Of a stretch of DNA of 64,000 nucleotides, positions 29,736 to 51,288 are shown in pieces. Source of the DNA: an uncultured Candidatus Melainabacteria bacterium (lineage in GTDB: Bacteria > Cyanobacteriota > Vampirovibrionia > Gastranaerophilales > Gastranaerophilaceae); NCBI GenBank assembly GCA_949398305.1, contig CASLVD010000002.1, forward strand, positions 2,942 to 66,941. Reading direction: 5' to 3'. Position 1 is the stretch's first letter. Every line of letters starts with the position of its first letter. A program made the translations under genes and the position numbers. Below the pieces are notes generated by a model that saw nothing but the letters and a program-made list of their open reading frames with translations, had not been told where the DNA came from and did no database searches.

Positions 29736-29770
29736 AAAATTGTTTGAAGTTGAAAATAGGGGAAATTAAA

Positions 29771-30688
29771 ATGGCAAAATTTGATAAAATAATTGGTATA
29801 TATAACGAAAATTATTATAAAATCATCAATATTTTTGGATTTAAAATTAAATTAAAGAATAGTAATCAACAATTGTATAAGAAAATGGATAAATTACATA
29901 ATGATTTAAATAGGAATATGCAAAAAAACATATCTGTATATGTTCAGCATGATAAGGCCTTTTCAGGTTATAAAAATGCTATGTACGGAAAAGATGTTTT
30001 CCTTATTGCAACAGGTCCTACATTAAATTACTTTAATCCTGTTGATGGTGCTGTGTATGTTGGCTGTAATGCTGCGTTTAAGTATGAAAAAGTTAAACTG
30101 GATTACTTATTTATGCAGGATTATGAAGCTGTGAAAGACTATATTGATGAAGTCCCGAATTTTGTAACTCCTGAATGTAAATTGTTTTATGGATATACTT
30201 GTGAGTATAAAAAAAGCAGAAGCAAGGTGATCCCTGAAAGTACTGCAATAAAACACGGTGCGATGCGTTATTATACGGATTGGGCAGATATAAAAGGTTT
30301 TAGACCGGAATTTGTGTGTGATATTACAACCCAGCCTTTGTGCTGTTATGGGACAGTTGCGTTTCCTTCTATGCAGTTTAATTTGTGGACTAATCCGAAA
30401 AGGATATATTTAGTCGGCTGTGACTGCTCAAGCAGCCATTATGATAAATCTAAGCTTGGTGATAATTTGGATGATTTAACTCATTTAATTAAAAAATGGA
30501 TTAAATTAAAGAACTTTGCTGATGCCTATTATCCTGATACGGAAATTATTTCAGTGAATCCTGTGGGGCTGCGAGGAATATTTAAGGAAGTCTGGACAGA
30601 ATCGTATTTGGCTGAACACCCTGAAATCCGTGATGAACTTGGCGATAAGATAGAAATTTTACAAACAAAAGAGGTAATGAATGTCTAA
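29771..30688 (+). CDS. DUF115/MptE-like putative glycosyltransferase (paralog)
   Basis: IATGPTLNYFNPVDG and RIYLVGCDCS boxes. ATG 29771 is preferred because MAKFDKIIGIYNENYYKIINIFGFKIKLKN parallels the paralog's N-terminus. The track start, TTG 29744, lies in the junction cassette. Confidence 0.7.
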   Translation: MAKFDKIIGIYNENYYKIINIFGFKIKLKNSNQQLYKKMDKLHNDLNRNMQKNISVYVQHDKAFSGYKNAMYGKDVFLIATGPTLNYFNPVDGAVYVGCNAAFKYEKVKLDYLFMQDYEAVKDYIDEVPNFVTPECKLFYGYTCEYKKSRSKVIPESTAIKHGAMRYYTDWADIKGFRPEFVCDITTQPLCCYGTVAFPSMQFNLWTNPKRIYLVGCDCSSSHYDKSKLGDNLDDLTHLIKKWIKLKNFADAYYPDTEIISVNPVGLRGIFKEVWTESYLAEHPEIRDELGDKIEILQTKEVMNV

Positions 30689-31415
30689 AACTTTGATATT
30701 TTTGGATTTTGACGGTGTGCTTTGTGACAGCGTAAAAGAAGCTTATTTACTTACACGTTTCGCGTATAAAAATACAGATGTAAAGCAGCCGATAGATGAA
30801 GAAAATTATCAAATGTTTCATAATTACCGTTTTCTTGTTGCAAACAGCTGGCAATATTATATTTTGGCAGATATTTTGGAAAATTTTTCTTATAAGAATG
30901 CTGATTTTATCGAAGCCCGCTACAAATACATTGTGTCTCAAGGAAAAACTGACAAATGTGACGAATTTAATAAAAAGTTTCTTGGTAAAAGAAAAGAACT
31001 TATGGAGCAGGATTTTGAATTTTGGAACGGCTTGGAAACTCCTACAAACTTTTTGCAAAAGTTAAAAAATATTATAGCACAGGCTGATGATTCATCATTT
31101 GCGATTCTTTCTACAAAAAATAAAGATGCTATTATTAAAAAATTTAATTTCTGGGGTGTGGAGTTTGATTCGGATTTAATTTTTGATAAAAAAGATTTGG
31201 AAAATTTATCTAAAGGTGAATTTATAAAAAGATATTTGGATTCTCATTCTGATATTGATGAAGCAATATTGATTGATGATAATGAAGATAACATCAACAG
31301 TTGTGCAAATATCGAGAATCTAAAAGCGTGTTTAACTTCGTGGGGATATTTAAAGTCTCCTGAAGGTAAAATGAGTGAAGATGATGTATTAAAAATAATA
31401 AAGGAGAGTGTATGA
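30681..31415 (+). CDS. HAD-like hydrolase (putative sugar-acid phosphate phosphatase)
   Basis: IFLDFDGVLCDS motif I and LIDDNEDN motif IV-like. It overlaps both neighbours (8 nt and 4 nt). Confidence 0.6.
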   Translation: MSKTLIFLDFDGVLCDSVKEAYLLTRFAYKNTDVKQPIDEENYQMFHNYRFLVANSWQYYILADILENFSYKNADFIEARYKYIVSQGKTDKCDEFNKKFLGKRKELMEQDFEFWNGLETPTNFLQKLKNIIAQADDSSFAILSTKNKDAIIKKFNFWGVEFDSDLIFDKKDLENLSKGEFIKRYLDSHSDIDEAILIDDNEDNINSCANIENLKACLTSWGYLKSPEGKMSEDDVLKIIKESV

Positions 31416-32173
31416 ATATAGTCGGAGTAATACCTGCCCGCTACCAGTCAACAAGATTTCCGGGGAAACCCCTTGCTGATATTTGCGGCAAACCTATGAT
31501 TTGGTGGGTTTATAATCAGGTAAAAAAAGTAGAAGCTCTATCAGAGGTTTATGTTGCAACAGATGACGAGCGTATTAAAACAGAATGCGAAAAATACGAT
31601 ATCAAAGTTGTAATGACAAAAGATACGCATAAAACACATCTGGACAGGTTAGCTGAATTTGTTCAAATAATTGATGCGGATTTTTACATTAATATTAATG
31701 GTGACGAACCGCTTATTGACCCTAAAAATATTGCAAAATTAGTACCAAATGGTGTTTCGCCTGATGAATTTTATTTTGCTAATGCTATGACACTAGTGAA
31801 AAATCCTGTGGAAGTTGTTGATAATGCGCGTATTAAAATTGTCACAGATGTTGACGGTTATGGGCTTTATATGGCAAGAACACCGATTCCATATCCGAAA
31901 GGTTCTTCAAATTTTGAGTATAAAAAATTTGTTGGGATTCAGTGCTTTAGTAAATCTGCGCTTGAATTTTGCGGTGTAACAGAACGCGGAGAAATCGAAG
32001 GTATTGAAGATATTGATGAATATAGATTTTTAGAACATGGTAAAAAAGTTAAATTTATACCTGTAGATGCTTCATCATTTTCTGTTGATACCAAAAAAGA
32101 TTTGGAAAAAGTCCGTGAAATGTTAAAAACTTCGCAGAATATTAAAATTTCGGGGGGGGGTAACCCTTTATAG
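31412..32173 (+). CDS. KdsB-like cytidylyltransferase (CMP-ulosonic acid synthetase)
   Basis: N-terminus VGVIPARYQSTRFPGKPLADICGKPMIWWV is the KdsB signature. The C-terminal codons run through a G9 tract. Confidence 0.75.
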   Translation: MNIVGVIPARYQSTRFPGKPLADICGKPMIWWVYNQVKKVEALSEVYVATDDERIKTECEKYDIKVVMTKDTHKTHLDRLAEFVQIIDADFYININGDEPLIDPKNIAKLVPNGVSPDEFYFANAMTLVKNPVEVVDNARIKIVTDVDGYGLYMARTPIPYPKGSSNFEYKKFVGIQCFSKSALEFCGVTERGEIEGIEDIDEYRFLEHGKKVKFIPVDASSFSVDTKKDLEKVREMLKTSQNIKISGGGNPL

Positions 32174-32213
32174 CTTATATTCAGAGCGTTTTAGCGGGAG
32201 GGCTGCAGCATGA
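32144..32213 (+). repeat. Poly-G junction cassette, copy B (G9 at 32152-32160)
   Basis: Homologous to 29664-29735. It ends in gcagcATGA, which supplies the start codon of the next gene. Confidence 0.8.
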
Positions 32214-32869
32214 TAAAAGTGTTAATCCCTGTCCGCGCCGGCTCTGTTAGAGTTAAAAACAAAAATATAAAACCTTTTGCAGATAGTAATCTTCTTACAA
32301 TAAAAGTAGAACAGATGAAACGAATTAAAGGTATTGATGGTGTAATTGTAAATTCAAATTCTGATGAAATGCTTGAAATCGCAGCCGGTCTGGGTGCAGA
32401 AGCAGTGAAAAGAGATGAATATTTCGCATCAAGTACTGTTTGTATGAACGAGGTTTACAAAAATATGGCAGAAAATTCTGATTGTGATACAATAATTTTT
32501 GCGGATGCGACAAATCCTTTAATCAAGGATGAAACCATTGAACATTGTATCAAAGCATATTTTGAAAATCTTGATGAATATGACTCACTTACAACAGTTA
32601 ACGAGATTAAACAGTTCATGTGGCAAGATGGCAAACCGATAAATTATGATGCGGCTAACAAGCCTAAAAGTCAGGATTTACCTGATATTGTAGCTTTAAA
32701 TCATGCCATAAGTATTATTCCAAGAAAATTGATGATTGAAAAAATGGATATTATCGGATACAAGCCAAATTTGTTTAAAATCGACTCTGTTGAGGCAACA
32801 GATATTGACAATGAAATAGATTTCGAATTCGCAGAATTTATGTATAAAAAATACAGGATGGTGAATTAA
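32210..32869 (+). CDS. Acylneuraminate cytidylyltransferase-family protein (NeuA/PseF-like)
   Basis: LIPVRAGSVRVKNKNIKPF N-terminal box of CMP-nonulosonate synthetases. 219 aa. Confidence 0.7.
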   Translation: MIKVLIPVRAGSVRVKNKNIKPFADSNLLTIKVEQMKRIKGIDGVIVNSNSDEMLEIAAGLGAEAVKRDEYFASSTVCMNEVYKNMAENSDCDTIIFADATNPLIKDETIEHCIKAYFENLDEYDSLTTVNEIKQFMWQDGKPINYDAANKPKSQDLPDIVALNHAISIIPRKLMIEKMDIIGYKPNLFKIDSVEATDIDNEIDFEFAEFMYKKYRMVN

Positions 32870-32871
32870 GA

Positions 32872-34449
32872 ATGAATGATATAAAAGTTTTAGATTGTAC
32901 TTTAAGAGATGGCGGATACGTTAATAAATGGGATTTCGGATTTAAGCGTATTGTGAAAATCTTGAAAAATCTTAACAACGCAAAAATAGATTATGCTGAA
33001 ATAGGATTTTTGAAAGATTGTGAATACGATAAAGAAAAATCTGTTTTTAACGAAATAAAAGAGATTGAAAATATTCTGCCAGAAGAAAGTCTTTATTCTA
33101 AAACTGTAGCTATGATTGTTTTCGGGCAATTTAGCAAGTCAAAACTTGTTCCTAAAACACCTGATATAAAACTTGATTCAATTCGTGTAACTTTTAAAAA
33201 ACATGAAATTAAAGATGTGTTTTCTTATTTCAAAAAAATTAAAGACTGCGGATATGAGGTTTTTGTAAATCCTACAAACATTGAAACTTATTCTGACAGT
33301 GAATTATTAGATTTAATTGAAAAAGTAAATAAATTAAAACCTTACGGGTTTTCTATTGTTGATACAAACGGGGTTTTGAAAGAAAGAAATCTGCAAAGGT
33401 TGTATTATCTTATTGATAATAATTTGGATGAAGATATTGCGCTTTGTTTCCACTCGCATAATAATCTTCAGCTTTCATTTTCTAACGCTCAGTGTCTTAT
33501 GAAGGTTAACCGTAATCGCCAATTGATTATTGATTCAACAATATTTGGCATGGGCAGAGGGGCAGGAAATCTTTGTACAGAGCTTTTAACCGAATATATC
33601 AACGATAATTATGATGGTAATTATGATATTATTCCTATTTTAAAAATTATTGATGAACAGATTAACCCTATATTTGCAAACACTCCGTGGGGCTATTCAG
33701 TGCCTTACTATCTAGCGGCAAAAAATCACTGCCATCCGAATTATGCAAAATATTTGGTTGAAAAACAAACTGTTCCGGTTGAAGTGATAAATAATTTGTT
33801 AAAACTTGTTCCGAATAATAAAAAATCACTCTATGATACAAATTTAATCCGTCAGATTTATCTGGATAATTTTTCTCATAAAATTGATGATACTGACACA
33901 GTAAAATATTTGAAAGAAACTCTTGAAGGTAAAGATTTGCTTGTTATTGCGCCGGGTAAAACTTTGATGCAGGAGCAGGAAAAAATTGATAATTATATCA
34001 AAAGTGAGAATCCGTTTATAATTTCTTTAAATTTTGATCCGGAAAATTATTCGCAAGATTTAGTATTTATTACTAATTTAAAAAGGTTTTCATCAATAGA
34101 AAACAATGATAAACCGCTTGTTGTAACTTCAAACATTGAATCTATTCCGCAAAATGCAAAATTGCTTAACTATTCATCATATTTGAATAATTCACGTATG
34201 TTTGATAACACTGCTTTAATGCTATTAAAACTTTTGGGTAAAATTGGTGTAAAAAAAGTTACTTTTGCAGGTCTTGACGGATTTAACACTAAAACAACCG
34301 AAAATTATATCAGCAATGAATTCGTAAATAACGGCAAAGAAGGCGAAGAATTTGATGAAAGAAATCAAATTATGAGCGAAGAATTGCAAAAATTTGCAAA
34401 GAAAATTGATATAAAATTCCTGACAAAATCGCAGTATACAATAAATTAA
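32872..34449 (+). CDS. HMGL-type aldolase (DRE-TIM barrel) fused to a C-terminal DUF115-like domain
   Basis: VLDCTLRDGG and CFHSHNNLQL metal-ligand boxes. The C-terminal half repeats the DUF115 boxes (DLLVIAPGKTL; KVTFAGLDGF). Confidence 0.6.
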   Translation: MNDIKVLDCTLRDGGYVNKWDFGFKRIVKILKNLNNAKIDYAEIGFLKDCEYDKEKSVFNEIKEIENILPEESLYSKTVAMIVFGQFSKSKLVPKTPDIKLDSIRVTFKKHEIKDVFSYFKKIKDCGYEVFVNPTNIETYSDSELLDLIEKVNKLKPYGFSIVDTNGVLKERNLQRLYYLIDNNLDEDIALCFHSHNNLQLSFSNAQCLMKVNRNRQLIIDSTIFGMGRGAGNLCTELLTEYINDNYDGNYDIIPILKIIDEQINPIFANTPWGYSVPYYLAAKNHCHPNYAKYLVEKQTVPVEVINNLLKLVPNNKKSLYDTNLIRQIYLDNFSHKIDDTDTVKYLKETLEGKDLLVIAPGKTLMQEQEKIDNYIKSENPFIISLNFDPENYSQDLVFITNLKRFSSIENNDKPLVVTSNIESIPQNAKLLNYSSYLNNSRMFDNTALMLLKLLGKIGVKKVTFAGLDGFNTKTTENYISNEFVNNGKEGEEFDERNQIMSEELQKFAKKIDIKFLTKSQYTIN

Positions 34450-35006
34450 CTGATTTTTGATGAAACTTCATTTTTCATCGCATCATAAATTTTGTATGTC
34501 ATATAGCAATCTTGTTCGGCTCTGTGATGACCTGAGGAATCAATCTTATAATAATCTGCAACAAGGTTTAATTTGTGGTGCTTAAGATCGCAAATTTTTC
34601 GTGACATTGCGCAGGTATCAATGTAATCATTTGAAAATTCTTTATTGAAGTATTTTTGATAATTATCATAAATAAAATTAATATCGAAATTAACATTATG
34701 ACCAATTACAACATCTTGTCCGATAAATTCAATATATTTATCAAGAACATTATCTATTGGCTGTGCTGTTTCAACCATTTTATTTGTAATACCTGTTAAA
34801 TTAGAGATAAAATAATTTATTTTGCTTTTAGGTTTAACAAGAGTTGTGAATTTTTCACTTATTTTATTTTGTCGAATTTTTATTGCCGAAAGCTCTATAA
34901 TTTCGTTTCTTAAACTTGAAAGACCTGTTGTTTCAATGTCTATAACTGTATAATCATCAGGAAGCGTGTTAATATTATTCCCTTTTTTTCGAATTTGTGT
35001 AGTCAT
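34446..35006 (-). CDS. DEDDh 3'-5' exonuclease (DNA polymerase III epsilon-like)
   Basis: Exo motifs VIDIETTGL, GHNVNFDINF and HHRAEQDC. Confidence 0.8.
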   Translation of the reverse strand: MTTQIRKKGNNINTLPDDYTVIDIETTGLSSLRNEIIELSAIKIRQNKISEKFTTLVKPKSKINYFISNLTGITNKMVETAQPIDNVLDKYIEFIGQDVVIGHNVNFDINFIYDNYQKYFNKEFSNDYIDTCAMSRKICDLKHHKLNLVADYYKIDSSGHHRAEQDCYMTYKIYDAMKNEVSSKIS

Positions 35007-35031
35007 AATAATTTTTTAGCATAAAATTTTA

Positions 35032-35568
35032 ATGGTGGCAAAAAATATTTTTACAGGGTTTATATTAAATATGGAAGTTTCATTTACAGGTATTCATAAT
35101 TTACATATAGGAAAGAAAACATATTCAAAATTCGGTTCATATGTTGACAGCACGGGAATAATAAAACGCGGAAACAAAGATTACACGGAAGTTTTAATCA
35201 AGTGTGATTTATCTGATGATGCGCAGGGTAATCATTTGAGCGAATTTCATGAAACACTTTCAAAGTGCAGACCGTGTTATCACGTTAATTGTATTAATCA
35301 TCAAAAACCTAATCAATTTACTTTGTTGATGAAACATTTTGGGGTAAAAGATGATGTAGCTGATGTTTTGAATTCGAATTTCAAAATTAATGATTATGAT
35401 ATTATGCTTGATGAACGTGAAATTTTACCGTTGTTTTCTTTTATGGCAAAAATAACAAGACAAATTGCGCTTGCAAAAGGTCCTTCAGATGCTCAAAAAC
35501 AATATGCGAAATTTGTTAATCATGGTATTCATAACGAAGCAATGAATTATATTGAAAACATTATGTAA
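35032..35568 (+). CDS. Hypothetical protein
   Basis: 178-aa ORF with an alternative start at ATG 35071. The N-terminus carries NIFTG and VSFTG motifs. Confidence 0.5.
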   Translation: MVAKNIFTGFILNMEVSFTGIHNLHIGKKTYSKFGSYVDSTGIIKRGNKDYTEVLIKCDLSDDAQGNHLSEFHETLSKCRPCYHVNCINHQKPNQFTLLMKHFGVKDDVADVLNSNFKINDYDIMLDEREILPLFSFMAKITRQIALAKGPSDAQKQYAKFVNHGIHNEAMNYIENIM

Positions 35569-35644
35569 TATTTATTATAATAACCTTGAAGCAGGAATTT
35601 CATAATATATAATTATTTGGTAGAGGATTTAAGAGAATTAAGTT

Positions 35645-36628
35645 ATGGAAAATTATCCTGTTGATATTGTATATTTGTGGTGTGATTCATCAGATGATGT
35701 GTGGCGAACTAAGAAAAATGATGAGTTACGCAAACTTGGCAAAACTACAGATAATGATTCCACTGGAGACTGCAGGTTTATTGATAATGATGAACTAAAA
35801 TATTCTCTGCGTTCTTTGGAAAAATATGCACCATGGATAAATAATATTTTTATAGTAACTGACAGTCAGGTGCCTAAATGGCTTGATACAACAAATCCTA
35901 AAATTAAAATTATTGACCATAAAGAAATACTGCCGGAAGATGTTTTACCGACTTTTAATGCTTCGGCTATTGAAACGGCATTACATAAGATTCCGAATTT
36001 ATCAGAACATTTTTTATTCGCAAATGATGATATGTTTTTTGCACGACCTGTACAAAAAAGTTTCTTTTTTGATGAAAAAGATACTAAACCTATTTTTAGA
36101 TTTTCAAAAAGACGAATTATAAATAAAACTTATAAACATCTTTACGGATATATGATTTCATCAGCTTATAAACTTGTTGAACAAAAATATGGAAAGTCTT
36201 TTCCATATTTCCCACACCATAATATTGATGCTTATTGTAAATCAGATATAGAAAAATGTTATAATGAATTTTTGGAAGGTTTTGAAAAGACTGCAAGACA
36301 AAAATTCCGTGAAAAAGATTGTATTCAGCGTTCAATTTTTGGATACTATTCGATTGCATGCGGCTGTGCATCGCCAAAAATTGTTAACAACTTTGCGGCT
36401 AAAATTTCTGATTTAATACATAAAAAATCTCAAGATTCTATGATGTTTGTCTTGAAAAAGAATAAATTATCACAAATAATTAAACACAGACCATATTTGT
36501 TTTGTATAAATGACAGTTCTGAAACCTGTGATGAGGATAGAGCAGCAATGAAAGAATTTTTAGAAAAAGAGTTTCCGCAGCAATCAAAGTTTGAGAAAAT
36601 GGGAATCACAAGGGAGATTAAAGAATGA
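35645..36628 (+). CDS. Stealth-family capsule/glycan hexose-1-phosphate transferase
   Basis: Stealth conserved regions DIVYLWCDSSDDVW, ELKYSLRSLEKYAPWINNIFIVTD and FNASAIETALHKIPNLSEHFLFANDDMFF. Confidence 0.8.
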   Translation: MENYPVDIVYLWCDSSDDVWRTKKNDELRKLGKTTDNDSTGDCRFIDNDELKYSLRSLEKYAPWINNIFIVTDSQVPKWLDTTNPKIKIIDHKEILPEDVLPTFNASAIETALHKIPNLSEHFLFANDDMFFARPVQKSFFFDEKDTKPIFRFSKRRIINKTYKHLYGYMISSAYKLVEQKYGKSFPYFPHHNIDAYCKSDIEKCYNEFLEGFEKTARQKFREKDCIQRSIFGYYSIACGCASPKIVNNFAAKISDLIHKKSQDSMMFVLKKNKLSQIIKHRPYLFCINDSSETCDEDRAAMKEFLEKEFPQQSKFEKMGITREIKE

Positions 36629-37620
36629 TTTTAGTAACTGGCGGTGCCGGATATATTGGCAGTCATAATGTAATAACTCTTATGGAATCAGGATACGATG
36701 TTGTAATATTTGACAGCTTGGAACTTGGTCATATTGAAACAGTAGAAGCATTGCGTAAGATTGATGCAAAAGGAAAAGTTGTTGATTTTATAAAAGGAGA
36801 CTTACAGAATTACAACGAAATTTATGAAGTTTTTAAGAAACATAAAATTGACTCGGTTGTACATTTTGCTGCATATTCTCAGGTGGCAGAGTCTGTAAAA
36901 AATCCTCAAAAATACTATTTTAACAATGTTTTTGGAACTTTAAATCTTCTGAAAGCAATGCTTAGTTTTGATGTTAAAAGAATCGTATTTTCGTCAACTG
37001 CAGCGACATATGGCGAGCCGGATTATGTTCCGATAGATGAAAATCATCCGCAAGTCCCGATAAATACATATGGTAAAACAAAATTAATGATAGAAAATAT
37101 TATGGATGATTATGATAAAGCTTACGGTTTAAAAAGTGTTCGTTTAAGATATTTTAATGTTGCTGGTGCAGATAGTAAAATTCGTGTTGGCGAATGGCAT
37201 GAACCTGAAACACATTTGATTCCTAATATTTTGAAATCAACTTTTAGCGGCGGTAAAACGTTTCAAATGTTCGGAACTGATTACCCGACAAAAGACGGAA
37301 CATGTGTAAGAGATTATATTAATATAGAAGACCTTGCAAATGCTCATGTTCTTGCACTAAAATATTTAGAAAATGGCGGTGTTACAAGCTTTTTTAATCT
37401 TGGTACAAATGAAGGCAGCAGTGTAAAAGAAGTGTTTACAACCTGTGAAAAGATTACCGGAAAACAAATTCCTGTTGATATAAAAGGAAGACGTGAAGGT
37501 GATCCGGCAACTCTAATAGCAGATAATAAAAAAGCTAAAGAAGTTTTAGGCTGGAATCCTGAAAAAATACTCGAAGAAAGTATTATATCAGCTTATAATT
37601 GGGAAAAAACATTAAAATAA
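36625..37620 (+). CDS. galE: UDP-glucose 4-epimerase
   Basis: GGAGYIGSH Rossmann motif, YGKTK catalytic motif, 331 aa. Confidence 0.9.
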   Translation: MILVTGGAGYIGSHNVITLMESGYDVVIFDSLELGHIETVEALRKIDAKGKVVDFIKGDLQNYNEIYEVFKKHKIDSVVHFAAYSQVAESVKNPQKYYFNNVFGTLNLLKAMLSFDVKRIVFSSTAATYGEPDYVPIDENHPQVPINTYGKTKLMIENIMDDYDKAYGLKSVRLRYFNVAGADSKIRVGEWHEPETHLIPNILKSTFSGGKTFQMFGTDYPTKDGTCVRDYINIEDLANAHVLALKYLENGGVTSFFNLGTNEGSSVKEVFTTCEKITGKQIPVDIKGRREGDPATLIADNKKAKEVLGWNPEKILEESIISAYNWEKTLK

Positions 37621-37635
37621 ATTGCAGAGGAAGTT

Positions 37636-39423
37636 ATGGAAAAATTTCAAGATTTAATAAAACTATTTGACAAAGACGGAGTAATGAAAAATTACGCTAA
37701 AGTTATACCGTATTTTAAAAAATACTGGTTTAGAACTGCTCTTGCATTAGGGCTTGCAATTCCGATAGGTTCACTGGATGCGGTTATTGCCCTTTCGTTA
37801 AAACCTTATATGGATATTGTCATGGTTGATAAAACCGTACAATCTCCATGGTATATCCCGCTTTTAATTGTGGCATTTACTTCAACCCAGGGGTTGTTAA
37901 ATTATCTTTCAACATATATGAATGCGTGGGTTGGCGGTAAGGTTACAAATGATTTTAAAAAGACTTTGTATAACAAATTAATGCACAAAGATTCGTCATT
38001 TTTTGATATGCGAACTTCAGGTGATATTATGCGCTGGTTTAATAATGACGTTAATACTGCCTGCGGAAGTTTATTGAATAACTTGAAAACAGGTATATCA
38101 AGAATATTTTCATCTCTGTCTTTAATCTGCGTATTGCTTTATAATTCCTGGCAATTAGCGATTATTGCGATTGTTGTTTTAATTTGTGCAGTTGTTCCTT
38201 TAACAAAAATGCGTGCAATGATTAAAGCTATAACAGATAAATCAGAATCAGCAGGCGGTAAAGTTATCACAGCATATAACGAAGCTTTTGCAGGAAACAA
38301 AGTTGTTACGGCATATAACTTATATGATTATCAAAATAAAATTTTTGATAATGTATTAGACAGCGTATTTGGTTTAGGTATGAAAATTACTCAGAAAACC
38401 GGCTGGTTATCTCCTATGATGCATATTGTCGTATCTGTCGGAATTGCTGCAGTTATCGGTTTGGGAAGCTATATGATTGTTAAAGGAACAATTACAAGCG
38501 GTAACTTTGTATCATTTATTACAGCGTTGATTATGCTTTACACACCTATCAAATTGTTAGGAAACAATGCAAAAAATATGCAAAATGCCCTTTTGGCTTT
38601 AGAACGTGTAATAAAACAACTTGAAGCCCAGCCTGCTATCAAAACAAAAGCAGATGCAAAAACTCTTACAGGTATGAATGATTCTATTGAATTTAAAAAT
38701 GTTAATTTTGAATACAGAAAAAATAAACCTGTTTTGAAAAACGTTTCATTTACTGTTAAAAAAGGTGAAACTTTTGCTCTTGTCGGCAATTCAGGCGGCG
38801 GTAAAAGTACTATAGTTAATCTGATTCCGCGATTTTATGATATTAAATCCGGAAATGTCATGATTGACGGGGTTGATGTACGTGATATTACGCTTGAATC
38901 CTTAAGAGATAATATTTCTATAGTATTTCAGGATAATTTCCTATTTTCCGGTACTATCAGAGAAAATATTATGCTTGGTAATTTGAACGCTACAGAAGAA
39001 GAATTAAGAAAAGCGCTTAAAGATTCTTATTTAGAAGATTTTGTAAACAGTCTTGAAAAAGGACTTGAAACAAATATCGGTGAGCGCGGTGTTTTACTTT
39101 CCGGCGGTCAAAAACAAAGAATCGGAATTGCCCGTGCATTTTTGAAAAATGCTCCGATATTGATTCTTGATGAAGCAACAAGTGCTCTTGATAATGAAGC
39201 AGAAAAAATTGTTCAACAGGCAATTGAAAACCTGATGAAAGACAGAACAGTTTTTGTTATCGCACACAGACTTACAACAGTTCAAAATGCTGACAGAATC
39301 GCAGTTATTAAAAACGGTGAGCTTGTTGAACTCGGTAATCATAACGAACTTGTACATATTGAAAACGGCGTTTATAAACATCTTTATGAATCACAGTTCG
39401 CAAAAGTAGGGGCTGCAGTTTAA
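37636..39423 (+). CDS. ABC exporter, fused permease/ATPase (MsbA-like)
   Basis: 595 aa with a six-TM N-terminal half. Walker A GNSGGGKST, signature LSGGQKQRIGIARA, Walker B ILILDEATSALD. Confidence 0.85.
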   Translation: MEKFQDLIKLFDKDGVMKNYAKVIPYFKKYWFRTALALGLAIPIGSLDAVIALSLKPYMDIVMVDKTVQSPWYIPLLIVAFTSTQGLLNYLSTYMNAWVGGKVTNDFKKTLYNKLMHKDSSFFDMRTSGDIMRWFNNDVNTACGSLLNNLKTGISRIFSSLSLICVLLYNSWQLAIIAIVVLICAVVPLTKMRAMIKAITDKSESAGGKVITAYNEAFAGNKVVTAYNLYDYQNKIFDNVLDSVFGLGMKITQKTGWLSPMMHIVVSVGIAAVIGLGSYMIVKGTITSGNFVSFITALIMLYTPIKLLGNNAKNMQNALLALERVIKQLEAQPAIKTKADAKTLTGMNDSIEFKNVNFEYRKNKPVLKNVSFTVKKGETFALVGNSGGGKSTIVNLIPRFYDIKSGNVMIDGVDVRDITLESLRDNISIVFQDNFLFSGTIRENIMLGNLNATEEELRKALKDSYLEDFVNSLEKGLETNIGERGVLLSGGQKQRIGIARAFLKNAPILILDEATSALDNEAEKIVQQAIENLMKDRTVFVIAHRLTTVQNADRIAVIKNGELVELGNHNELVHIENGVYKHLYESQFAKVGAAV

Positions 39424-39467
39424 ACAGATAGCAAAAAATATTTTTACAGGTTTTATATATTGTAGAA

Positions 39468-39496
39468 TTGACAATTATTATTTACTGTAATAATAT
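39468..39496 (+). promoter_or_regulatory. Sigma70-type promoter candidate for the small ORF
   Basis: TTGACA (39468-39473), 17-nt spacer, TAATAT (39491-39496). Confidence 0.45.
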
Positions 39497-39520
39497 AATT
39501 TCAAAAGGAAAAGGAAAATA

Positions 39521-39607
39521 ATGAAAAACAACACTATGATGATGCAAATTATGATGATGCAAAGCCTAAATTCAGGCGGTCATTGTTATGCGAATCGAAT
39601 GTGTTAA
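39521..39607 (+). CDS. 28-codon Met-rich small ORF (leader peptide or secreted peptide): MKNNTMMMQIMMMQSLNSGGHCYANRMC
   Basis: It is not in the ORF track. SD AAGGAAAAGGA lies 5-10 nt upstream of the ATG, it has its own promoter candidate, and a strong terminator lies 24 nt after the TAA. Confidence 0.55.
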   Translation: MKNNTMMMQIMMMQSLNSGGHCYANRMC

Positions 39608-39630
39608 GATTTCAAGATAACAAATTATAA

Positions 39631-39657
39631 GGACCGCCTGAAAGGCGGTCCTTTTTT
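39631..39657 (+). terminator. Rho-independent terminator (possible attenuator)
   Basis: GGACCGCC (39631-39638), loop TGAAA, GGCGGTCC (39644-39651), then TTTTTT. The 5' arm can alternatively pair with CAGGCGGTC at 39573-39581. Confidence 0.8.
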
Positions 39658-39690
39658 AGTGAGAAATTTTAACATATAAGGGAAAAGAAA

Positions 39691-41046
39691 ATGATTCAAT
39701 CAATAAATAGCAATAATATTCAATTTAAACAAAATACATTACCTTCATTTAAAGGCGCACAAAAAGAATTCACACGTAGTACAAAATATTTGGATAAATT
39801 TTTAAAATCGCAGGAAAATTTATCATCAACAAGATTTATTCAGGGAACTTTGACAAACTGGTTTCCAAAAGCTGTATTATCAAGGAGCTTTATTGATTTT
39901 AGTGAATTTACCTTTTTAGAATTTATAGAGTCAGGAATATTTTATTTCGCAGCACCGTTTTTTGGAGAACATTTATTCAGAAAAGGTTTGTTTAAAAAAA
40001 TTCAGCCTAAAAAAGTTAGAGATGATGTTGTAAAAAACCTTGCATTAGGTGTTGAGAAAATCAAAAATTCAAACTTAGATAAAACTTTAAAAAACAGACT
40101 TATAACAACAAAAGGCGGGTTATTACTGGCATGTATTACCGTTCCGGCATTAGAGTATGCGCTGGGTTTTGCTAAAAATTTATTTACTTTAAAAGTCTTT
40201 AAGGTTAGTGATTTTAATAATGTGGCAAACTTAAACAAAAATAAAACCGAAAATAATGAACAGCAGCAAAGGGTTGAAAAACATTCAAAAAGTGTTCTTG
40301 TAAAAACAGGTTTATTGTCAGCTGCCGGAATCGGTTCAGGGCTTGCACTTGCCAGATTCGGACATAATTCAAAAGCTGCACGCAAATTTTCTGAAATTTT
40401 ACTTGAACCGGGCGAACAGATCTCAAAACTTTTGCATAAAATTGGTTTAAAATCTGCTAAGACAGATGATTTCTTAAAAGATTACCTAAAATTGGATTTT
40501 GTAAATAATAACGGCAAACTTGCGCTAAGTAAAGGTCAGCTTGCTGTGACTTGTATTACAGGTTTATTTGGTTATTCAAGTGCCGCTAAAGACAGAGGAA
40601 AACTTGATTTTTATGAGGTTTGGACAAGAGTTCCGCTTGTGGTTTTATACACGATTTTTGGTTCTTCAATATTAGATGCCGGATTTAAGAAAATTTTGGC
40701 AAATAAAGGAAAATTCCCTGAACTTATCAAACGCGGTAAGGACGGAGTTATTGAAAATGTTCCGTCTAGAAAAGAGTTGCCAAAAATAGCAGAAAAACTT
40801 TCTAAATTGAATAACACATCAGTTGATGCTGAACTTGCAAAACTTATTAAGCAAAAAGCTGTAATAACAGGTGTTCCTTATTTATTCAGTTTAATCGCAA
40901 TGGGCTTTACATTAAGTGCTGTTTCGAGAATCTGGACAAAATACAGATATGATCATCAGGTTAAACCACAAGAACAAAACTCTTCACAAGATTTTGTTAA
41001 CACAAATCCGGCATTTCAAGGGTTTAAATTGAGTGTTCAAAAATAA
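39691..41046 (+). CDS. Hypothetical protein with hydrophobic segments
   Basis: 451-aa ORF with SD AAGGGAAAAG. The N-terminus is MIQSINSNNIQFKQNTLPSFKG. Confidence 0.55.
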   Translation: MIQSINSNNIQFKQNTLPSFKGAQKEFTRSTKYLDKFLKSQENLSSTRFIQGTLTNWFPKAVLSRSFIDFSEFTFLEFIESGIFYFAAPFFGEHLFRKGLFKKIQPKKVRDDVVKNLALGVEKIKNSNLDKTLKNRLITTKGGLLLACITVPALEYALGFAKNLFTLKVFKVSDFNNVANLNKNKTENNEQQQRVEKHSKSVLVKTGLLSAAGIGSGLALARFGHNSKAARKFSEILLEPGEQISKLLHKIGLKSAKTDDFLKDYLKLDFVNNNGKLALSKGQLAVTCITGLFGYSSAAKDRGKLDFYEVWTRVPLVVLYTIFGSSILDAGFKKILANKGKFPELIKRGKDGVIENVPSRKELPKIAEKLSKLNNTSVDAELAKLIKQKAVITGVPYLFSLIAMGFTLSAVSRIWTKYRYDHQVKPQEQNSSQDFVNTNPAFQGFKLSVQK

Positions 41047-41644
41047 ATTCCGCAAGTTTTTTGGCAATAATTTTATGAGATTCGATTGTATAATGCAGCC
41101 CGTCAGTTTTTGACGGGTTTGTAATTTCATTAAAATCAAAATATAAACAGTTATTTTCGACAGCCTTTTTAGCAAAAATCGGAAAAAGTTTTTGAATTTT
41201 TTCGATTGAATTTTTATCAAACATCATTGAAAACCTGCTTGTAAGAATATTTTCGGTAATTTTCACCGGTGGAATTATGATAATTTGAGTTTCCGGGTTA
41301 ACATTTCGGATTGAATCAATAAGATGCTGTAACCCGTTTTGTAAATTTGTTTCATTTAAATCATAGAAAAACTGTGCATCATTAGTTCCGACAGCAAGAA
41401 TACAAATATTTATATCTCTGCGGTTCTGTAAAAATATAGGTAAATACTCGCCGCCGCTTTGTTTTAGCCCTTCAGGGTTTTTGAAAAATCCGGTGCGGTT
41501 GTTCATTCCTTCTTCGATTATTTCAAAATTTGGTAAAATTTCAGATAGAATCCCGCTCCAGCGTTCATTTTTTGCGTATCTTCCGCAGGTTTCAGGAATA
41601 AATCCGAATGTATTTGAATCTCCGTAACATAGTATTTTTTTCAT
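41024..41644 (-). CDS. SGNH/GDSL-family hydrolase
   Basis: ILCYGDSNTFG block I and GTND block III. Confidence 0.8.
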   Translation of the reverse strand: MKKILCYGDSNTFGFIPETCGRYAKNERWSGILSEILPNFEIIEEGMNNRTGFFKNPEGLKQSGGEYLPIFLQNRRDINICILAVGTNDAQFFYDLNETNLQNGLQHLIDSIRNVNPETQIIIIPPVKITENILTSRFSMMFDKNSIEKIQKLFPIFAKKAVENNCLYFDFNEITNPSKTDGLHYTIESHKIIAKKLAEFIFEHSI

Positions 41645-41670: not shown

Positions 41671-42135
41671 ATGACACAAATTTTGAAAAAATATTTTTAT
41701 GATACACCTGTTGGCAGGCTTGGAATAGCAGAGAAAGACGGCAAAATTTCACAAGTATCTTTTTTTGATACGGTTAAAGGTGAATTATTGGAAACACCTT
41801 TGATAAAAGAAGCATATAGGCAGCTTGATGAGTATTTTAAAGGTAAAAGAAAAAGTTTTGATTTGCCGCTTTTACTTGATGGAACAGAATTCCAAATAAA
41901 GGTTTGGAAGGTTTTAATGACAATTGATTATGGTAAAACCGCATCATATGGTGATGTCGCAAAACTTATAGGCAGCCCAAAAGCTTCGCGTGCTGTTGGC
42001 AGTGCGAATAATAAAAATAAAATAGCAATCATAATTCCGTGTCACCGTGTAATCGGTTCAAACGGTACTCTTACCGGTTACGCCGGAGGACTTGAAATTA
42101 AACAATATTTACTGGATTTAGAACAAAATAGTTAA
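41671..42135 (+). CDS. ogt: Methylated-DNA--protein-cysteine methyltransferase
   Basis: IIPCHRVIG active site. 154 aa. Confidence 0.9.
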   Translation: MTQILKKYFYDTPVGRLGIAEKDGKISQVSFFDTVKGELLETPLIKEAYRQLDEYFKGKRKSFDLPLLLDGTEFQIKVWKVLMTIDYGKTASYGDVAKLIGSPKASRAVGSANNKNKIAIIIPCHRVIGSNGTLTGYAGGLEIKQYLLDLEQNS

Positions 42136-42503
42136 TCTTTATTTTTTAGTTTGTCTTTAGCAAATTTATCTCTTAAAAATCTGCTTTTTGTTTCTGTTGC
42201 CGGCTGTTCAGAATCCTTTTGAATATTAGTAGTATTATTAATATTTACATTTGTGGCCCAGCCTTTTTCAAGACCGTTATAATATTGATTTTCGTGTTTA
42301 ATGGCTCTTTTTCTTGCACCGGCTCTTGCTCTGTTTTCAGGTGTAAAAGCAGCGTTTCTGCCAAATTGTGCTTCAAGCGGTGCAGGTGCTCCATATGAAG
42401 AAGATGCAGGAGTTCCTGTATTCATATACTGCACGTGATAAGTTGCATTTGCTGCAGTTGATGTTACTCCTATGACCAAAAGTGCTAATAAAAATTTTTT
42501 CAT
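42132..42503 (-). CDS. Small secreted basic protein, paralog 1
   Basis: Start moved to ATG 42503 because GGAGG lies 6 nt upstream. It has a signal peptide ending ANA and shares ATYHVxYMNTG...GRNAAFTP with 42957-43325. Confidence 0.6.
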   Translation of the reverse strand: MKKFLLALLVIGVTSTAANATYHVQYMNTGTPASSSYGAPAPLEAQFGRNAAFTPENRARAGARKRAIKHENQYYNGLEKGWATNVNINNTTNIQKDSEQPATETKSRFLRDKFAKDKLKNKD

Positions 42504-42571
42504 AAAACCTCCAAATTTTTTATTATTATACAATTTATAACGGAAGTTTTCAATATTTGTTCATTTTAATT

Positions 42572-42946
42572 TTAATTTTTGCAAGCGTTATTTACACCGT
42601 AATAAGTAATTCCGCCGCAAGAAATGGTTTTATACTGCGGAATTTGAAAGTCTTTGTTAAATCTTGACGGGGTATTATTTTGTACTTTTGCTGTTATCGG
42701 ATGCTGTCTTTTCATACCTGATTGGTGTTTTACGATATTTTTTTGATATTCTGGGGTGTATATATATTTTGGTCTGACATGAGCCATTCTTTTTTGGGGT
42801 TTGGAAAATCTTTTATTTGGCTTGGCAAATCTGGTTTTCGGGTGAGCGTAACCAGTACGGCAGTAATAGCCGGTACACATATATGAGGCATTTGAGCTTA
42901 AACCGGTAAATAAAAATATTAATAATGTAAGAAAAACTTTTTTCAT
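42572..42946 (-). CDS. Small secreted basic protein, paralog 2
   Basis: It has a signal peptide and a basic PK-rich core. It shares the C-terminal RFNK...GITYY motif with 42957-43325. Confidence 0.55.
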   Translation of the reverse strand: MKKVFLTLLIFLFTGLSSNASYMCTGYYCRTGYAHPKTRFAKPNKRFSKPQKRMAHVRPKYIYTPEYQKNIVKHQSGMKRQHPITAKVQNNTPSRFNKDFQIPQYKTISCGGITYYGVNNACKN

Positions 42947-42956
42947 TTACAAATCC

Positions 42957-43325
42957 TTAGTTATAATATGTAATGCCGTTACGTGTGTATGTTTTTTGAG
43001 CTGTAATTTTGTAGTTTTTGTTGAATCTTGAAATTTCCATTGGAGCACGAGATGCTGTAGAAATTACAGGTCTTTTATTATAACAGTTTGCACATCTTGC
43101 CTGTTCTCCTCTAAGGTGCGCATAATGTCTTCTTGTTGAAGCAATTCTTGCTCTGCCGGCAGGTGTGAAAGCAGCATTACGCCCGAATGATGCACTAATT
43201 GGTCTTGGTGCTCCGTAATGAGAGTGAGATACAGCACCGGTGTTCATATAATGAACGTGATAAGTCGCATTTGCTGTAGTTGTTGTAAGTAATAATACCA
43301 AAACTGTTAATATAAATTTTTTCAT
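42957..43325 (-). CDS. Small secreted basic protein, paralog 3
   Basis: Start at ATG 43325 (MKKFIL). It has a signal peptide ending ANA and similarity to both neighbours. Confidence 0.6.
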   Translation of the reverse strand: MKKFILTVLVLLLTTTTANATYHVHYMNTGAVSHSHYGAPRPISASFGRNAAFTPAGRARIASTRRHYAHLRGEQARCANCYNKRPVISTASRAPMEISRFNKNYKITAQKTYTRNGITYYN

Positions 43326-43421
43326 TGGCACAAACCTTCTACTTTTCCCTTGTATCTATTTAACGACAATGAAAATAATTTGTGCTATTTATTAATGATA
43401 ACCGTTACTATTCTTTACAAA

Positions 43422-46146: not shown

Positions 46147-49100
46147 ATGTCTGAGACAAAATATGCAAAAAGAGTAACGCCAATGGGTATTCCTCATACT
46201 CGTTTGGACGATTTACCGGACCTTATTGAAGTGCAAAAAAAATCGTTTGAATGGTTTTTAAAAGAAGGTTTGAAAGAAGAATTACTTTCATTCTCTCCTA
46301 TTAAAGACTATACAGGCAGATTAGAATTACACTTCTTACCAAACTATACTTTCGATAATGCAAAGTATACAGTTGAAGAAGCAAGAATTCATGACGCAAC
46401 TTATGCAAAACAATTACGCGTTATGATTAGATTAGTTAACCGTGACAGCGGTGAAATTAAAGAACAAGAAGTTTACATCGGCGACATCCCTACAATGACT
46501 GACAAAGGTACTTTCATTGTAAACGGTGCAGAACGTGTTATCGTATCACAAATCGTTCGTTCTCCTGGTGTTTACTTCAAATGCGATCCGTCACCTACAG
46601 GAAAACGTTTGTATAACGCTACAATGATTCCTAACCGCGGTGCTTGGTTGAAAATCGAAACAGATTCTAACGACATTATCCACGTTAAAATCGACAAAAA
46701 CAGAAAAATCTTAGCTACAACTTTATTAAAAGCTATGGGTATTACTGTTTCTGAAATGGAATCAAAATTCACTCACTTTGAATTCTTGAAAAAGACTTTG
46801 GAAAAAGATCCTACAGAAACTACAGATGAAGCTTTAATTGAATTGTACAAAAAATTAAGACCTGGTGATCCTGCATCTCCTCAAGGCGGACGCCAAATCT
46901 TAGAATCAAGATTCTTTGATGAAAAGAAATACGATATCGGTCGTGTTGGTCGTTATAAATTAAACAAAAAATTAAACTTAAATATACCAAACAACCAAAG
47001 AACATTAACTGTTGAAGATATTGTTTCAACAATTGAATACTTAATCAACTTAACTTATGATGAAGGTCAATTGGATGATATCGACCACTTGGGTAACAGA
47101 AGAATCCGTTCAGTTGGTGAATTGTTACAAAACCAATTCAGAGTAGGTCTTTCAAGAATCGAAAGAATCGTTAAAGAAAGAATGACTCTTCAAGATTCTG
47201 AAACTTTAACACCGTTGAACTTATTGAATACTAAACCTTTAGTTGCTTCATTAAAAGAATTTTTCGGTTCTTCACAGTTATCACAGTTTATGGACCAGAC
47301 AAACCCTCTTGCTGAATTGACTCACAAACGTCGTATTTCAGCTTTAGGACCTGGCGGTTTACAAAGAGAAAGGGCAGGATTCGCGGTTCGTGATATTCAC
47401 CCTTCTCACTACGGACGTATTTGTCCTATCGAAACTCCGGAAGGTCCGAACGCAGGTTTGATTGGTTCACTTGCAACTCACGCTAAAGTTAACGATTACG
47501 GTTTTGTTGAATCTCCGTTCTTTGTTGTTAAAGACGGTGTTGTGACTGATGAAGTTGTTTATATGACAGCAGATGCTGACGAAAATTTCCGTTGTGCTCC
47601 TGCTGACGTTAAATTAACAAAAGACAGAAGATTTGTTGAGTCAATGGTTCCTGCAAGATATCGTTCAGAATTTATTATGACAGAAGCTTCTAAAGTTGAC
47701 TATGTGGGTGTTTGCCCTATCCAAATCATTTCAGTTGCGACTTCAATGATTCCGTTCATCGAACACGACGATGCTAACCGTGCATTGATGGGTTCTAACA
47801 TGCAGCGTCAAGCAGTACCTCTTTTAATCACTCAAAGACCAAGAGTTGGTACAGGGCTTGAATCTCGTGTTGCAAAAGACTCAGGTATGGTTATTGTATC
47901 TGATGTAGACGGTACAGTTGAAAGAGTTGTTGGTGAAGAAATTGTAATCAGAGATGTACAAGGTAAGCCGCATATTTACACTCTAATGAAATATGTACGT
48001 TCTAACCAAGATACTTGTATTAACCAAAGACCTATTGTTCACGAAGGCGACAAAGTTAAAGCCGGCGATGTAATTGCTGATGGTGCTTCAACTTGCGGCG
48101 GCGAACTTTCATTAGGTAAAAACATCTTGGTTGCTTATATGCCTTGGGAAGGTTATAACTTCGAGGATGCTATCTTACTTTCAGAAAGATGCGTTCACGA
48201 TGATATCTTCACATCATTACACATTGAAAAATTAGAAATCGAAGCTCGTCAAACTAAACTTGGACCGGAAGAAATTACACGTGAAATTCCAAACGTTTCA
48301 GAAGATGCTCTAAGACATTTGGACGAACGCGGTATTGTTCGTATCGGTGCTCGTGTTTACGCTGACGATATATTAGTTGGTAAAGTTACACCTAAAGGTG
48401 AATCTGAACATCCGCCTGAAGAAAAATTATTAAGAGCAATCTTCGCTGAAAAAGCAAGAGATGTTAAAGATAATTCACTTCGCGTACCTCACGGAGAAGG
48501 CGGTAGAGTACTTGACGTAAAAGTATTCGACAGAGAAAAAGGTGATGAACTTCCACCTGGTGCTAATACAGTTATCAGAGTTTACATTGCTCAAAAACGT
48601 AAAGTTTCTGTAGGTGATAAACTTTCAGGACGTCACGGTAACAAAGGTATCGTATCACGTATCTTGCCAAAAGAAGATATGCCATTCTTACCTGATGGTA
48701 CTCCTGTAGATATCGTATTGAACCCATTGGGTGTACCTTCTCGTATGAACGTTGGTCAAACTTATGAATTATTGTTAGGTTTGGCTGCATACTTGACAGG
48801 TGATCATTACGAAGCACCATCATTTGATGAAATGTACGGTGAAAACCAATCAGAAATCGCAACAAAAGCTGAACTTCTTAGAGGTATCAAAGAATCAGGC
48901 TGCGATTGGGTTGGCGAAGACGGTAAGGTAATGCTTATTGACGGTAGAACCGGTGAACCATTCGACAGACCTGTAGCTGTTGGTTTAACTTACTTCTTGA
49001 AACTTGTCCACTTGGTTGATGATAAAATCCACGCTCGTTCAACCGGTCCTTACTCATTAGTAACTCAACAACCTTTGGGTGGTAAGGCTCAATTCGGTGG

Positions 49101-49464
49101 ACAAAGATTCGGAGAAATGGAAGTTTGGGCATTGGAAGCTTACGGTGCTGCTTATACACTTCAAGAAATGTTAACAATCAAATCAGATGATGTTAACGGA
49201 CGTAACAGAGCGTATGAAGCTATCGTTAAAGGTGACAATATTCCAAGACCTGGTATTCCTGAATCATTCAAAGTACTTGTAAGAGAATTACAAAGTATCG
49301 GTTTAGATATAACAGTAGCGAAGAAAGACGGTCAGGAAGTAGACTTGATGACAGATATGGACGACTTGAGAAAAGCTGCTCCAAAAAGAACTCTGTCAGA
49401 TGTTGATTCTGAGTTGTTGAATATCAACTTCTTTGAAACACCTACCACTTTTGGAGATCTATAA
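46147..49464 (+). CDS. rpoB: DNA-directed RNA polymerase subunit beta
   Basis: 1105 aa with canonical blocks ([39 protein letters not shown]). Confidence 0.98.
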
Positions 49465-49533
49465 TAAGTAATGTGTGATTGGCGGGATATTTTCCCGCCG
49501 GATTCACCAAATTGAAAAAGGAGAACATTATAA

Positions 49534-51243: not shown

Positions 51244-51288
51244 GTGTAAAAATCAGTGTAAAAATTAACTAATTGAAGGAAAATTAGA

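Follow-up and report, generated by a model that had tools for sequence, protein, structure and literature searches.

A probable transcription attenuator with methionine codons as its sensor ahead of a gene for a methionine-poor protein in Gastranaerophilales

Leader-peptide attenuation is a textbook mechanism of transcriptional control, and in the known examples the regulatory codons are those for Trp, His, Phe, Leu, Thr, Ile/Val or Cys. The methionine (Met) status of the cell is sensed via S-adenosylmethionine (SAM) riboswitches, T-boxes or protein regulators, and to our knowledge Met has not been described as the regulatory codon of a leader. Here, we analyzed a stretch of 64,000 nucleotides (nt), referred to as the window, on contig CASLVD010000002.1 of an uncultured Candidatus Melainabacteria bacterium (assembly GCA_949398305.1), in which a short open reading frame (ORF) rich in ATG codons is placed between its own promoter and an intrinsic terminator, directly upstream of a gene for a protein of 451 amino acids (aa). 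We consider it likely that this unit is a real ribosome-mediated leader-peptide transcription attenuator with Met codons as its sensor. The type of mechanism is itself known, while the regulatory amino acid and the lineage would be new and the target gene is unusual.

The attenuators of the Proteobacteria (trpL, hisL, pheL, leuL, thrL and ilvL, represented in Rfam by Trp_leader, His_leader, Phe_leader, Leu_leader and Thr_leader, among others) likewise consist of a short ORF, in which codons for a single amino acid are clustered, and an intrinsic terminator ahead of the structural gene. They also contain an overlapping antiterminator, the 5' strand of which is located just past the footprint of the stalled ribosome, and they are switched on by starvation for the amino acid in question. 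The unit described here differs from these systems in its Met codons, in its Melainabacteria/Vampirovibrionia host and in its target, which is a single gene for a probable membrane protein rather than a biosynthetic operon. It also differs from the trp type in that the 5' strand of the antiterminator is placed inside the ORF, 20-24 nt ahead of the stop codon, and in that the 1:2 hairpin is weakly indicated. Outside the Proteobacteria, attenuation has arisen repeatedly in various phyla, and the leader codons determine which amino acid is sensed; these leaders respond to His, Leu, Ile, Trp and Cys, and their targets are known genes for biosynthesis or aminoacylation. According to a survey from 2010, leader peptides had until then been known from Proteobacteria and Actinobacteria; the survey itself contributed a His leader of the Firmicutes, which is located 5' of hisS/hisZ in bacilli (PMC2965389). 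Leader peptides in Actinobacteria (PMC1262725) and a leucine-rich attenuator peptide of the ilv-leu operon in Staphylococcus aureus (PMC5794164) have been described separately.

Two other groups of systems share some of these features. The S-box (SAM-I) and the Met T-boxes also contain a competing terminator and antiterminator, and they report the Met or SAM status, but they respond through direct binding of SAM or uncharged tRNA and do not depend on translation, unlike the leader described here. In TnaC, SpeFL and ErmCL, the ribosome occupancy of a short upstream ORF likewise controls the downstream gene. However, in these systems a conserved peptide recognizes a ligand within the exit tunnel, and the effect is on Rho termination or translation, whereas in the present unit the Met codons alone are conserved and the target is an intrinsic terminator. 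The leader RNA is about 150 nt long and contains neither a Stem I nor a specifier loop. No Rfam 15 family was identified at gathering thresholds in the window, and no T-box or SAM family was among the matches to positions 39420-39700 even at E <= 10. Leader models gave partial matches below their thresholds, mainly over the terminator, with 22 bits versus 55 for Phe_leader and 18 versus 41 for Trp_leader. A bacterial leader peptide with Met codons was not found in Rfam or in the full-text literature that was searched; the first-pass annotation, made from the DNA sequence without database searches, had remarked that such leaders are not a standard mechanism.

The unit is encoded on the forward strand. 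Its promoter (39468-39496), as read in the sequence and found in a promoter scan, consists of the -35 element TTGACA (39468-39473), a 17-nt spacer and the -10 element TAATAT (39491-39496). Inspection of the sequence places the ribosome-binding site of the leader, AAAAGGAAAAGGAAAATA, at 39504-39520, with the purine-rich AAAAGGAAAAGGAAAA ahead of the start codon ATG at 39521. The leader ORF (39521-39607, with the stop codon TAA at 39605-39607) has 28 codons and encodes the peptide MKNNTMMMQIMMMQSLNSGGHCYANRMC, the best-conserved part of which (39536-39559) contains the Met runs ATGATGATG at 39536-39544 and 39551-39559, the proposed stall sites. Eight of the 28 codons are ATG. At the ATG usage of the window (2.25%), the probability of at least seven internal Met residues in 27 codons is 1.8e-6, and a pattern of two Met runs is present at a single place in the window, versus 0.01 expected by chance. 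The terminator, identified with a terminator scan at 39629-39657, has a stem of 11 base pairs (bp), seven of which are G-C, formed by a 5' arm (strand C, 39629-39639) and a 3' arm (strand D, 39643-39653) around a loop of 3 nt (39640-39642), and is followed by a T-run to 39657. The gene for the 451-aa protein (39691-41046, forward strand) is always located directly 3' of the leader. The promoter, the Shine-Dalgarno sequence, the start and stop codons, the terminator and the next gene had been listed in the first-pass annotation and are all present at the coordinates that it states, and its count of eight ATG codons, including two Met runs, is borne out by the translation. It had also noted that CAGGCGGTC (39573-39581) inside the ORF is complementary to 39632-39640 in the terminator, which is correct; the perfect match is in fact longer and covers 11 nt, between TTCAGGCGGTC (39571-39581) and GACCGCCTGAA (39632-39642). 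Complementarity and covariation identify the first of these segments as the 5' strand of the antiterminator (strand B), which corresponds to codons N17-H21 and includes the two Gly codons, while the 3' strand (39632-39642) is shared with the terminator.

To study the conservation of the unit, we scanned species-representative genomes with the 451-aa protein, which yielded 63 loci with homologs of 52-97% identity, and retained the 57 loci in which the DNA on the 5' side of the homolog spans at least 250 nt. Close relatives of the window genes come from genome bins of the Gastranaerophilales (Melainabacteria/Vampirovibrionia). All 57 loci carry the whole unit, about 140-260 nt ahead of the gene for the 451-aa homolog. 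A TTGACA-like -35 element is placed about 48-64 nt 5' of the leader start codon in nearly all of them, and a -10 element is also present. A Shine-Dalgarno sequence containing GG is located 5-13 nt ahead of the start codon in 57 of 58 leaders, and the ribosome-binding site of the leader resembles that of the downstream gene. The start codon is ATG in 56 leaders and GTG in one (L026). The ORF is 24-34 codons long, most commonly 28, and contains 7-12 Met codons arranged as MMM-x-MMM(M). The Met runs are kept, while the residue between or after them varies (Q/N/Y/S/I/C/R), and where the N-terminal part of the ORF, ahead of the Met runs, varies in length, the indels are of 3 nt. The stop codon varies in type but is nearly fixed in position, and in 55 of the 57 leaders at least one of the last four residues is Met. 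The ORF also contains a conserved G-rich strand, AGGYGGY, and the unit closes with a terminator and its T-run; a terminator with a perfect stem was found by the scan in 56 of the 57 loci, the remaining one (L012) having one mismatched pair.

These patterns bear on the alternative that the AUG repeats are not translated, but are bound by an RNA-binding protein of the TRAP or HutP kind, or by another factor, that selects which helix is formed. Such binding would fit with the triplets adjoining the antiterminator strand and with the strong conservation of the nucleotide stretch ATGATGATGCAAATGATGATG within the Gastranaerophilales. It would not explain why the ribosome-binding site is conserved, why an in-frame start codon is present everywhere, even where ATG has changed to GTG, why the indels are of 3 nt and why the position of the stop codon is fixed. 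Furthermore, remote homologs differ in the nucleotides of the repeats but keep the Met codons in frame, and the sites of TRAP and HutP are spaced, unlike the contiguous AUG triplets here. We therefore consider this explanation very improbable. A scan of metagenomes with ATGATGATGCAAATGATGATG was unspecific, the true motif being present at six of 120 loci among the matches listed. At these six loci, a start codon follows at the usual distance after the leader, and the reading frame, where visible, resembles the 451-aa homologs; the scan carries no information on other gene contexts. No further leader with Met runs was found in 502,674 nt of related loci, and no other leader-like ORF with a terminator was found in the window. 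One genome bin, CM_BacZag150.40, has two contigs (L035 and L040) that each contain a copy of the 451-aa homolog, with 67-68% identity to the query, which may represent paralogs or a mixture of strains.

The RNA of the unit is predicted to form two mutually exclusive helices. The minimum free energy fold of 39500-39665 uses the antiterminator pairing (-42.8 kcal/mol, z = -4.1), and none of 200 shuffled sequences folded as well. In an alignment of 57 sequences, RNAalifold recovered the terminator helix with compensatory changes, the middle pair being G-C in 27 sequences and A-U in another 27, and it recovered the antiterminator once the 3' arm of the terminator had been removed. In this alignment, 95.3% of the antiterminator cells are paired, and four of the eight pairs show compensatory changes on both sides. 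The covariation score of the antiterminator is 0.351, versus 0.194 for shuffled alignments, none of 500 of which reached 0.351, and 0.04-0.12 for controls in which the strand was slid. A second analysis, based on a motif-anchored alignment of 53 distinct sequences, showed that the 7-bp core of the antiterminator is 96-100% paired, also with compensatory changes. At one core position, T-A was observed 25 times, C-G 17 times and T-G 11 times, but C-A was not observed, whereas independence of the two sides would give about eight C-A. The helix runs on into the loop of the terminator: six pair types make the first flanking position 75% paired, and none of 2000 permutations reached the pairing observed in the flank. 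Since the loop nucleotides would otherwise be free to vary, this extension of the pairing is hard to account for without selection for the alternative helix. The predicted duplexes of B and C have mean energies of -16.8 kcal/mol for cognate strands, -13.2 kcal/mol for non-cognate strands and -8.2 kcal/mol for shuffled strands. Two other pairings were considered. Folds of single sequences contain an inner hairpin that joins B and C (UUGUUGUGC...GCAACAA) around a loop holding the stop codon, but this hairpin is absent from the RNAalifold structures and is not claimed here, and a pairing of AUGAUGAUG with CAUUGUUGU via G-U wobbles, recognized by eye, received no support from the folds.

The covariation also concerns the second proposal in the first-pass annotation, namely a double-glycine leader followed by a disulfide-cyclised 8-mer that is secreted by the ABC exporter. 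More generally, the ORF could encode a functional small peptide with its own terminator, either this one or a metal-binding peptide with Met, His and Cys residues, in which case the complementarity to the terminator would be incidental. The segment SLNSGG is indeed followed by HCYANRMC, with two Cys residues, and the gene for an ABC exporter is placed directly 5' of the unit. However, the Gly-Gly codons and the variable residue that precedes them covary with the terminator, and are thus dictated by RNA pairing. The residues of the presumed core vary in both sequence and length (HCYANRMC, HFVANRMC, HCLARMR, HCFVRM, SHYLLRM and a truncated HCYAN), and there is neither a signal peptide nor a modification enzyme nearby. 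The ABC protein, of 595 aa, consists of the domains ABC_membrane and ABC_tran and lacks a C39 peptidase domain. Furthermore, an ABC exporter gene is located near the unit in only 18 of the 63 loci, at a variable distance and often with other DNA in between, while the gene for the 451-aa protein adjoins the unit in all 63. We conclude that the unit is a partner of the 451-aa gene rather than of the exporter. The exported double-glycine peptide is not upheld by these data, and we find a functional peptide of any of these kinds hardly credible.

The spacing of the elements is consistent with control by a stalled ribosome, as in the classic attenuators. The last Met codon begins 17 nt ahead of the B core and about 14 nt ahead of the extended pairing, and the stretch between this codon and B contains no indels in most of the family. 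A ribosome with a codon in its A site shields about 12-13 nt downstream, and for this reason a ribosome stalled on the last Met codon would end just short of B. In most loci, 20-24 nt separate the end of strand B from the stop codon, and in all loci but one the terminator follows 17-28 nt past the stop codon.

According to the proposed mechanism, transcription would begin at the promoter of the unit, and a ribosome would translate the 28-codon leader. If charged tRNA-Met is scarce, the ribosome would stall at any of the six AUG codons of the cluster (39536-39559), with its front edge halted just before strand B (39571-39581). Strand B would then be free to pair with the 5' arm and loop of the terminator (39632-42) once these have been transcribed, the terminator hairpin would not form, and the RNA polymerase would read through to the 451-aa gene. 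With ample Met, the ribosome would cover B and then sit between B and C, where the stop codon is placed, while C and D are transcribed. Strand B would thus be unable to pair in time, C would pair with D, and transcription would end at about 39657. The elements, their conservation, the covariation of both helices, the fitting spacing and the correlation of protein composition with the type of leader codon are observed, and ribosome stalling, a response to Met and the function of the 451-aa protein are inferred; Met shortage most likely switches the 451-aa gene on.

The composition of the regulated protein is in line with such a response. The 451-aa protein contains a single internal Met in 450 residues (0.22%; Poisson P = 0.0012), which is the lowest Met content among the 48 window ORFs of at least 150 aa, for which the median is 2.0%. 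Similarly, the median Met content is 0.47% in 119 close homologs versus 1.9% in distant representatives of the family. It is an established observation that proteins needed during starvation for an amino acid are depleted in that amino acid (PMC4209129), and a protein that is nearly free of Met could be produced under Met starvation. The proposal of a Met-codon leader with mutually exclusive helices in the first-pass annotation gains support from the conservation of the ORF and both helices in the 57 loci, which it had suggested as a check, as well as from the covariation of both helices, the footprint geometry and the Met depletion of the protein.

The protein family itself is small, with 207 representatives at the level of 50% identity. 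The 451-aa protein has no match in Pfam, in NCBIfam or in the PDB sequence set, including a search with a sequence profile against the latter. It contains five to six hydrophobic helices and is very basic, with 55 Lys residues and a net charge of about +32. The structure predicted with AlphaFold2 is all-helical and confident (predicted local distance difference test score 88, predicted template modelling (TM) score 0.82), and a Foldseek search with this model against the PDB gave no meaningful match, the best TM score being about 0.2. These features suggest that it is probably a membrane protein and possibly a transporter, and the model indicates that it may have a new membrane-protein fold.

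To examine the leaders of more distant family members, the encoding DNA was looked up for homologs that were chosen by identity rank, as predictions set beforehand from the composition of the protein, or as a control. Two further homologs that had been chosen as tests, P0140 and P0262, are outside the comparison, since their contigs end too near the gene to show a leader. Three of the homologs chosen by identity rank alone have leaders with runs of Trp (W) codons, and all three proteins lack Trp. These are P0134 (L186; 0 Trp, 8 Met), the leader of which contains ...LSWWRLL..., P0137 (L184; 0 Trp, 9 Met), with ...QSWWSLS..., and P0142 (L188; 0 Trp, 7 Met), with ...NWWWQV immediately before the stop codon. 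By contrast, P0123 (L185, 47% identity), also chosen by rank, has 4 Met and is preceded by the leader MIKNLMAMMMCMMCMSKFDRQVLL, while P0136 (L187), with 11 Met and 5 Trp, has no leader of this type. Among the homologs chosen as predictions, the Trp-free P0216 (L190; 0 Trp) has a leader that ends in ...NNCWWRL. The Met-poor P0159 (L193, 35% identity, 44% G+C; 3 Met in 531 aa) and P0270 (L194; 2 Met in 489 aa) are preceded by the leaders MTTFTAMMMCMMMAPKGCRFVDCMNQR and ...STMMMCTFSIESMPY, respectively, each followed by its stop codon and a terminator. The control, P0197 (L192), with 21 Met and 14 Trp, has no leader of this type. Overall, the type of leader codon and the amino acid that is missing from the protein go together.

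The runs of Met codons thus persist in remote homologs, as MAMMMCMMCM in L185 and MMMCMMM in L193, and the nucleotides of these repeats differ while the Met codons stay in frame. The leader of P0123 in particular shows that it is the Met codons that are conserved, rather than the Gln codons or the exact nucleotides. Segments resembling a terminator and an antiterminator were also observed around the WW/WWW leaders, at 2838-2968 in L184, 409-562 in L186, 89-180 in L188 and 849-966 in L190, and the leader in L186 has textbook 1:2, 2:3 and 3:4 segments.

The association between leader codons and protein composition is predicted by attenuation that senses the supply of an amino acid, but not by the functional-peptide model, nor by a model in which the leader is translated and operates the same switch through arrest of the nascent peptide, as in TnaC, SpeFL or ErmCL, in response to a small molecule or translation stress rather than to the supply of tRNA-Met. 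Two features could be read in favor of peptide arrest, since the near-invariant CGA-AUG near the stop codon and the conserved M-M-M-Q pattern might be taken for an arrest motif, and the regulated protein has no recognizable Met function. However, residues other than Met are poorly conserved, the Q being replaced with N, Y, S, I, C or R, and the C-terminal end varies in sequence and length. In addition, the WW/WWW leaders in the sister lineages are a hallmark of supply sensing, and peptide arrest does not predict that the regulated proteins lack exactly the amino acid encoded in the leader. Peptide arrest thus appears unlikely.

Some observations nevertheless weigh against supply-sensing attenuation as outlined above. 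The expected tie of the regulated protein to Met supply is indirect, through its own low Met content and through the Trp-free homologs behind Trp leaders. The alignment columns show that CGA-ATG (Arg-Met; 39596-39601 in the window), two to three codons ahead of the stop codon, is nearly invariant although CGA is a rare codon (27 of 497 Arg codons in the window), and the model leaves this pair unexplained; it could set the dwell time of the ribosome between B and C, or be an RNA element. RNAalifold predicts the 1:2 pairing (GAUG..GCC with GGUCAUU), which however shows almost no covariation, and an anti-antiterminator of the trp type is thus weakly indicated. Since the stop codon is located 20-24 nt beyond B rather than adjoining it, the blocking of B by a ribosome that has not stalled rests on arguments of timing and steric hindrance. 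The WW leader in L190 has its sole T-run directly after segment 3, unlike the simple model. Finally, one prediction failed: the Trp-free homolog P0239 (L195; 0 Trp) has no Trp codons in its leader. This leader, MSSVIFTALIMDMCSSAPEVGPCC, located at about 836-1000 in L195, ends in two Cys codons and is followed by a strong terminator; the locus has 53% G+C, and the protein contains a single Cys. It may represent a third type of leader, with Cys codons.

If true, a conserved attenuator with Met codons would add a new amino acid to leader-peptide attenuation and would extend the mechanism to the non-photosynthetic sister lineage of the Cyanobacteria, the members of which are frequent in animal guts and mostly uncultured. 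The match between the kind of codon in the leader (Met or Trp) and the amino acid absent from the protein represents an unusually clean natural experiment, and provides a clue, open to testing, to what a protein family with neither annotation nor a known fold may do. It also suggests a general route to starvation-induced genes in uncultured organisms. More tentatively, the family could be an unrecognized class of membrane proteins that serve the cell under amino-acid starvation, such as importers with a substrate that switches between Met and Trp, in which the leader codons (Met, Trp and perhaps Cys) and the purging of the amino acid from the protein have repeatedly co-evolved. We regard this as a possibility worth stating rather than as the expected outcome; if it is correct, the identity of the leader codons could reveal the specificity of uncharacterized family members.

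The genes upstream of the unit in the window encode a Stealth-family protein, a GalE-type epimerase and the 595-aa ABC exporter. They are part of a long cluster of genes on the same strand (26698-39423) that resembles clusters for the biosynthesis and export of surface polysaccharides (Stealth CR2, GalE-type epimerase, MsbA-like ABC exporter) and that ends just ahead of the leader, but without conserved adjacency. On the 3' side, a terminator scan identified a terminator-like hairpin at 41097-41119 on the forward strand, and the next gene, for a GDSL hydrolase, is convergent on the reverse strand. Because the next gene is convergent, the regulated unit is a single gene.

Further downstream, at 42132-43331 on the reverse strand, three tandem genes encode small paralogous proteins of 133, 124 and 124 aa with N-termini that resemble signal peptides. 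Two of these share the motif ATYHVQYMNTG or ATYHVHYMNTG, and the one that was searched against Pfam gave no match. The window has a G+C content of about 31%, and the segment at 46147-55140 contains rpoB followed by a split rpoC, with a 569-aa ORF similar to rpoC1 (49534-51243) and a 1283-aa ORF (51289-55140). A split rpoC is a hallmark of the cyanobacterial lineage, in agreement with an origin from the Melainabacteria.

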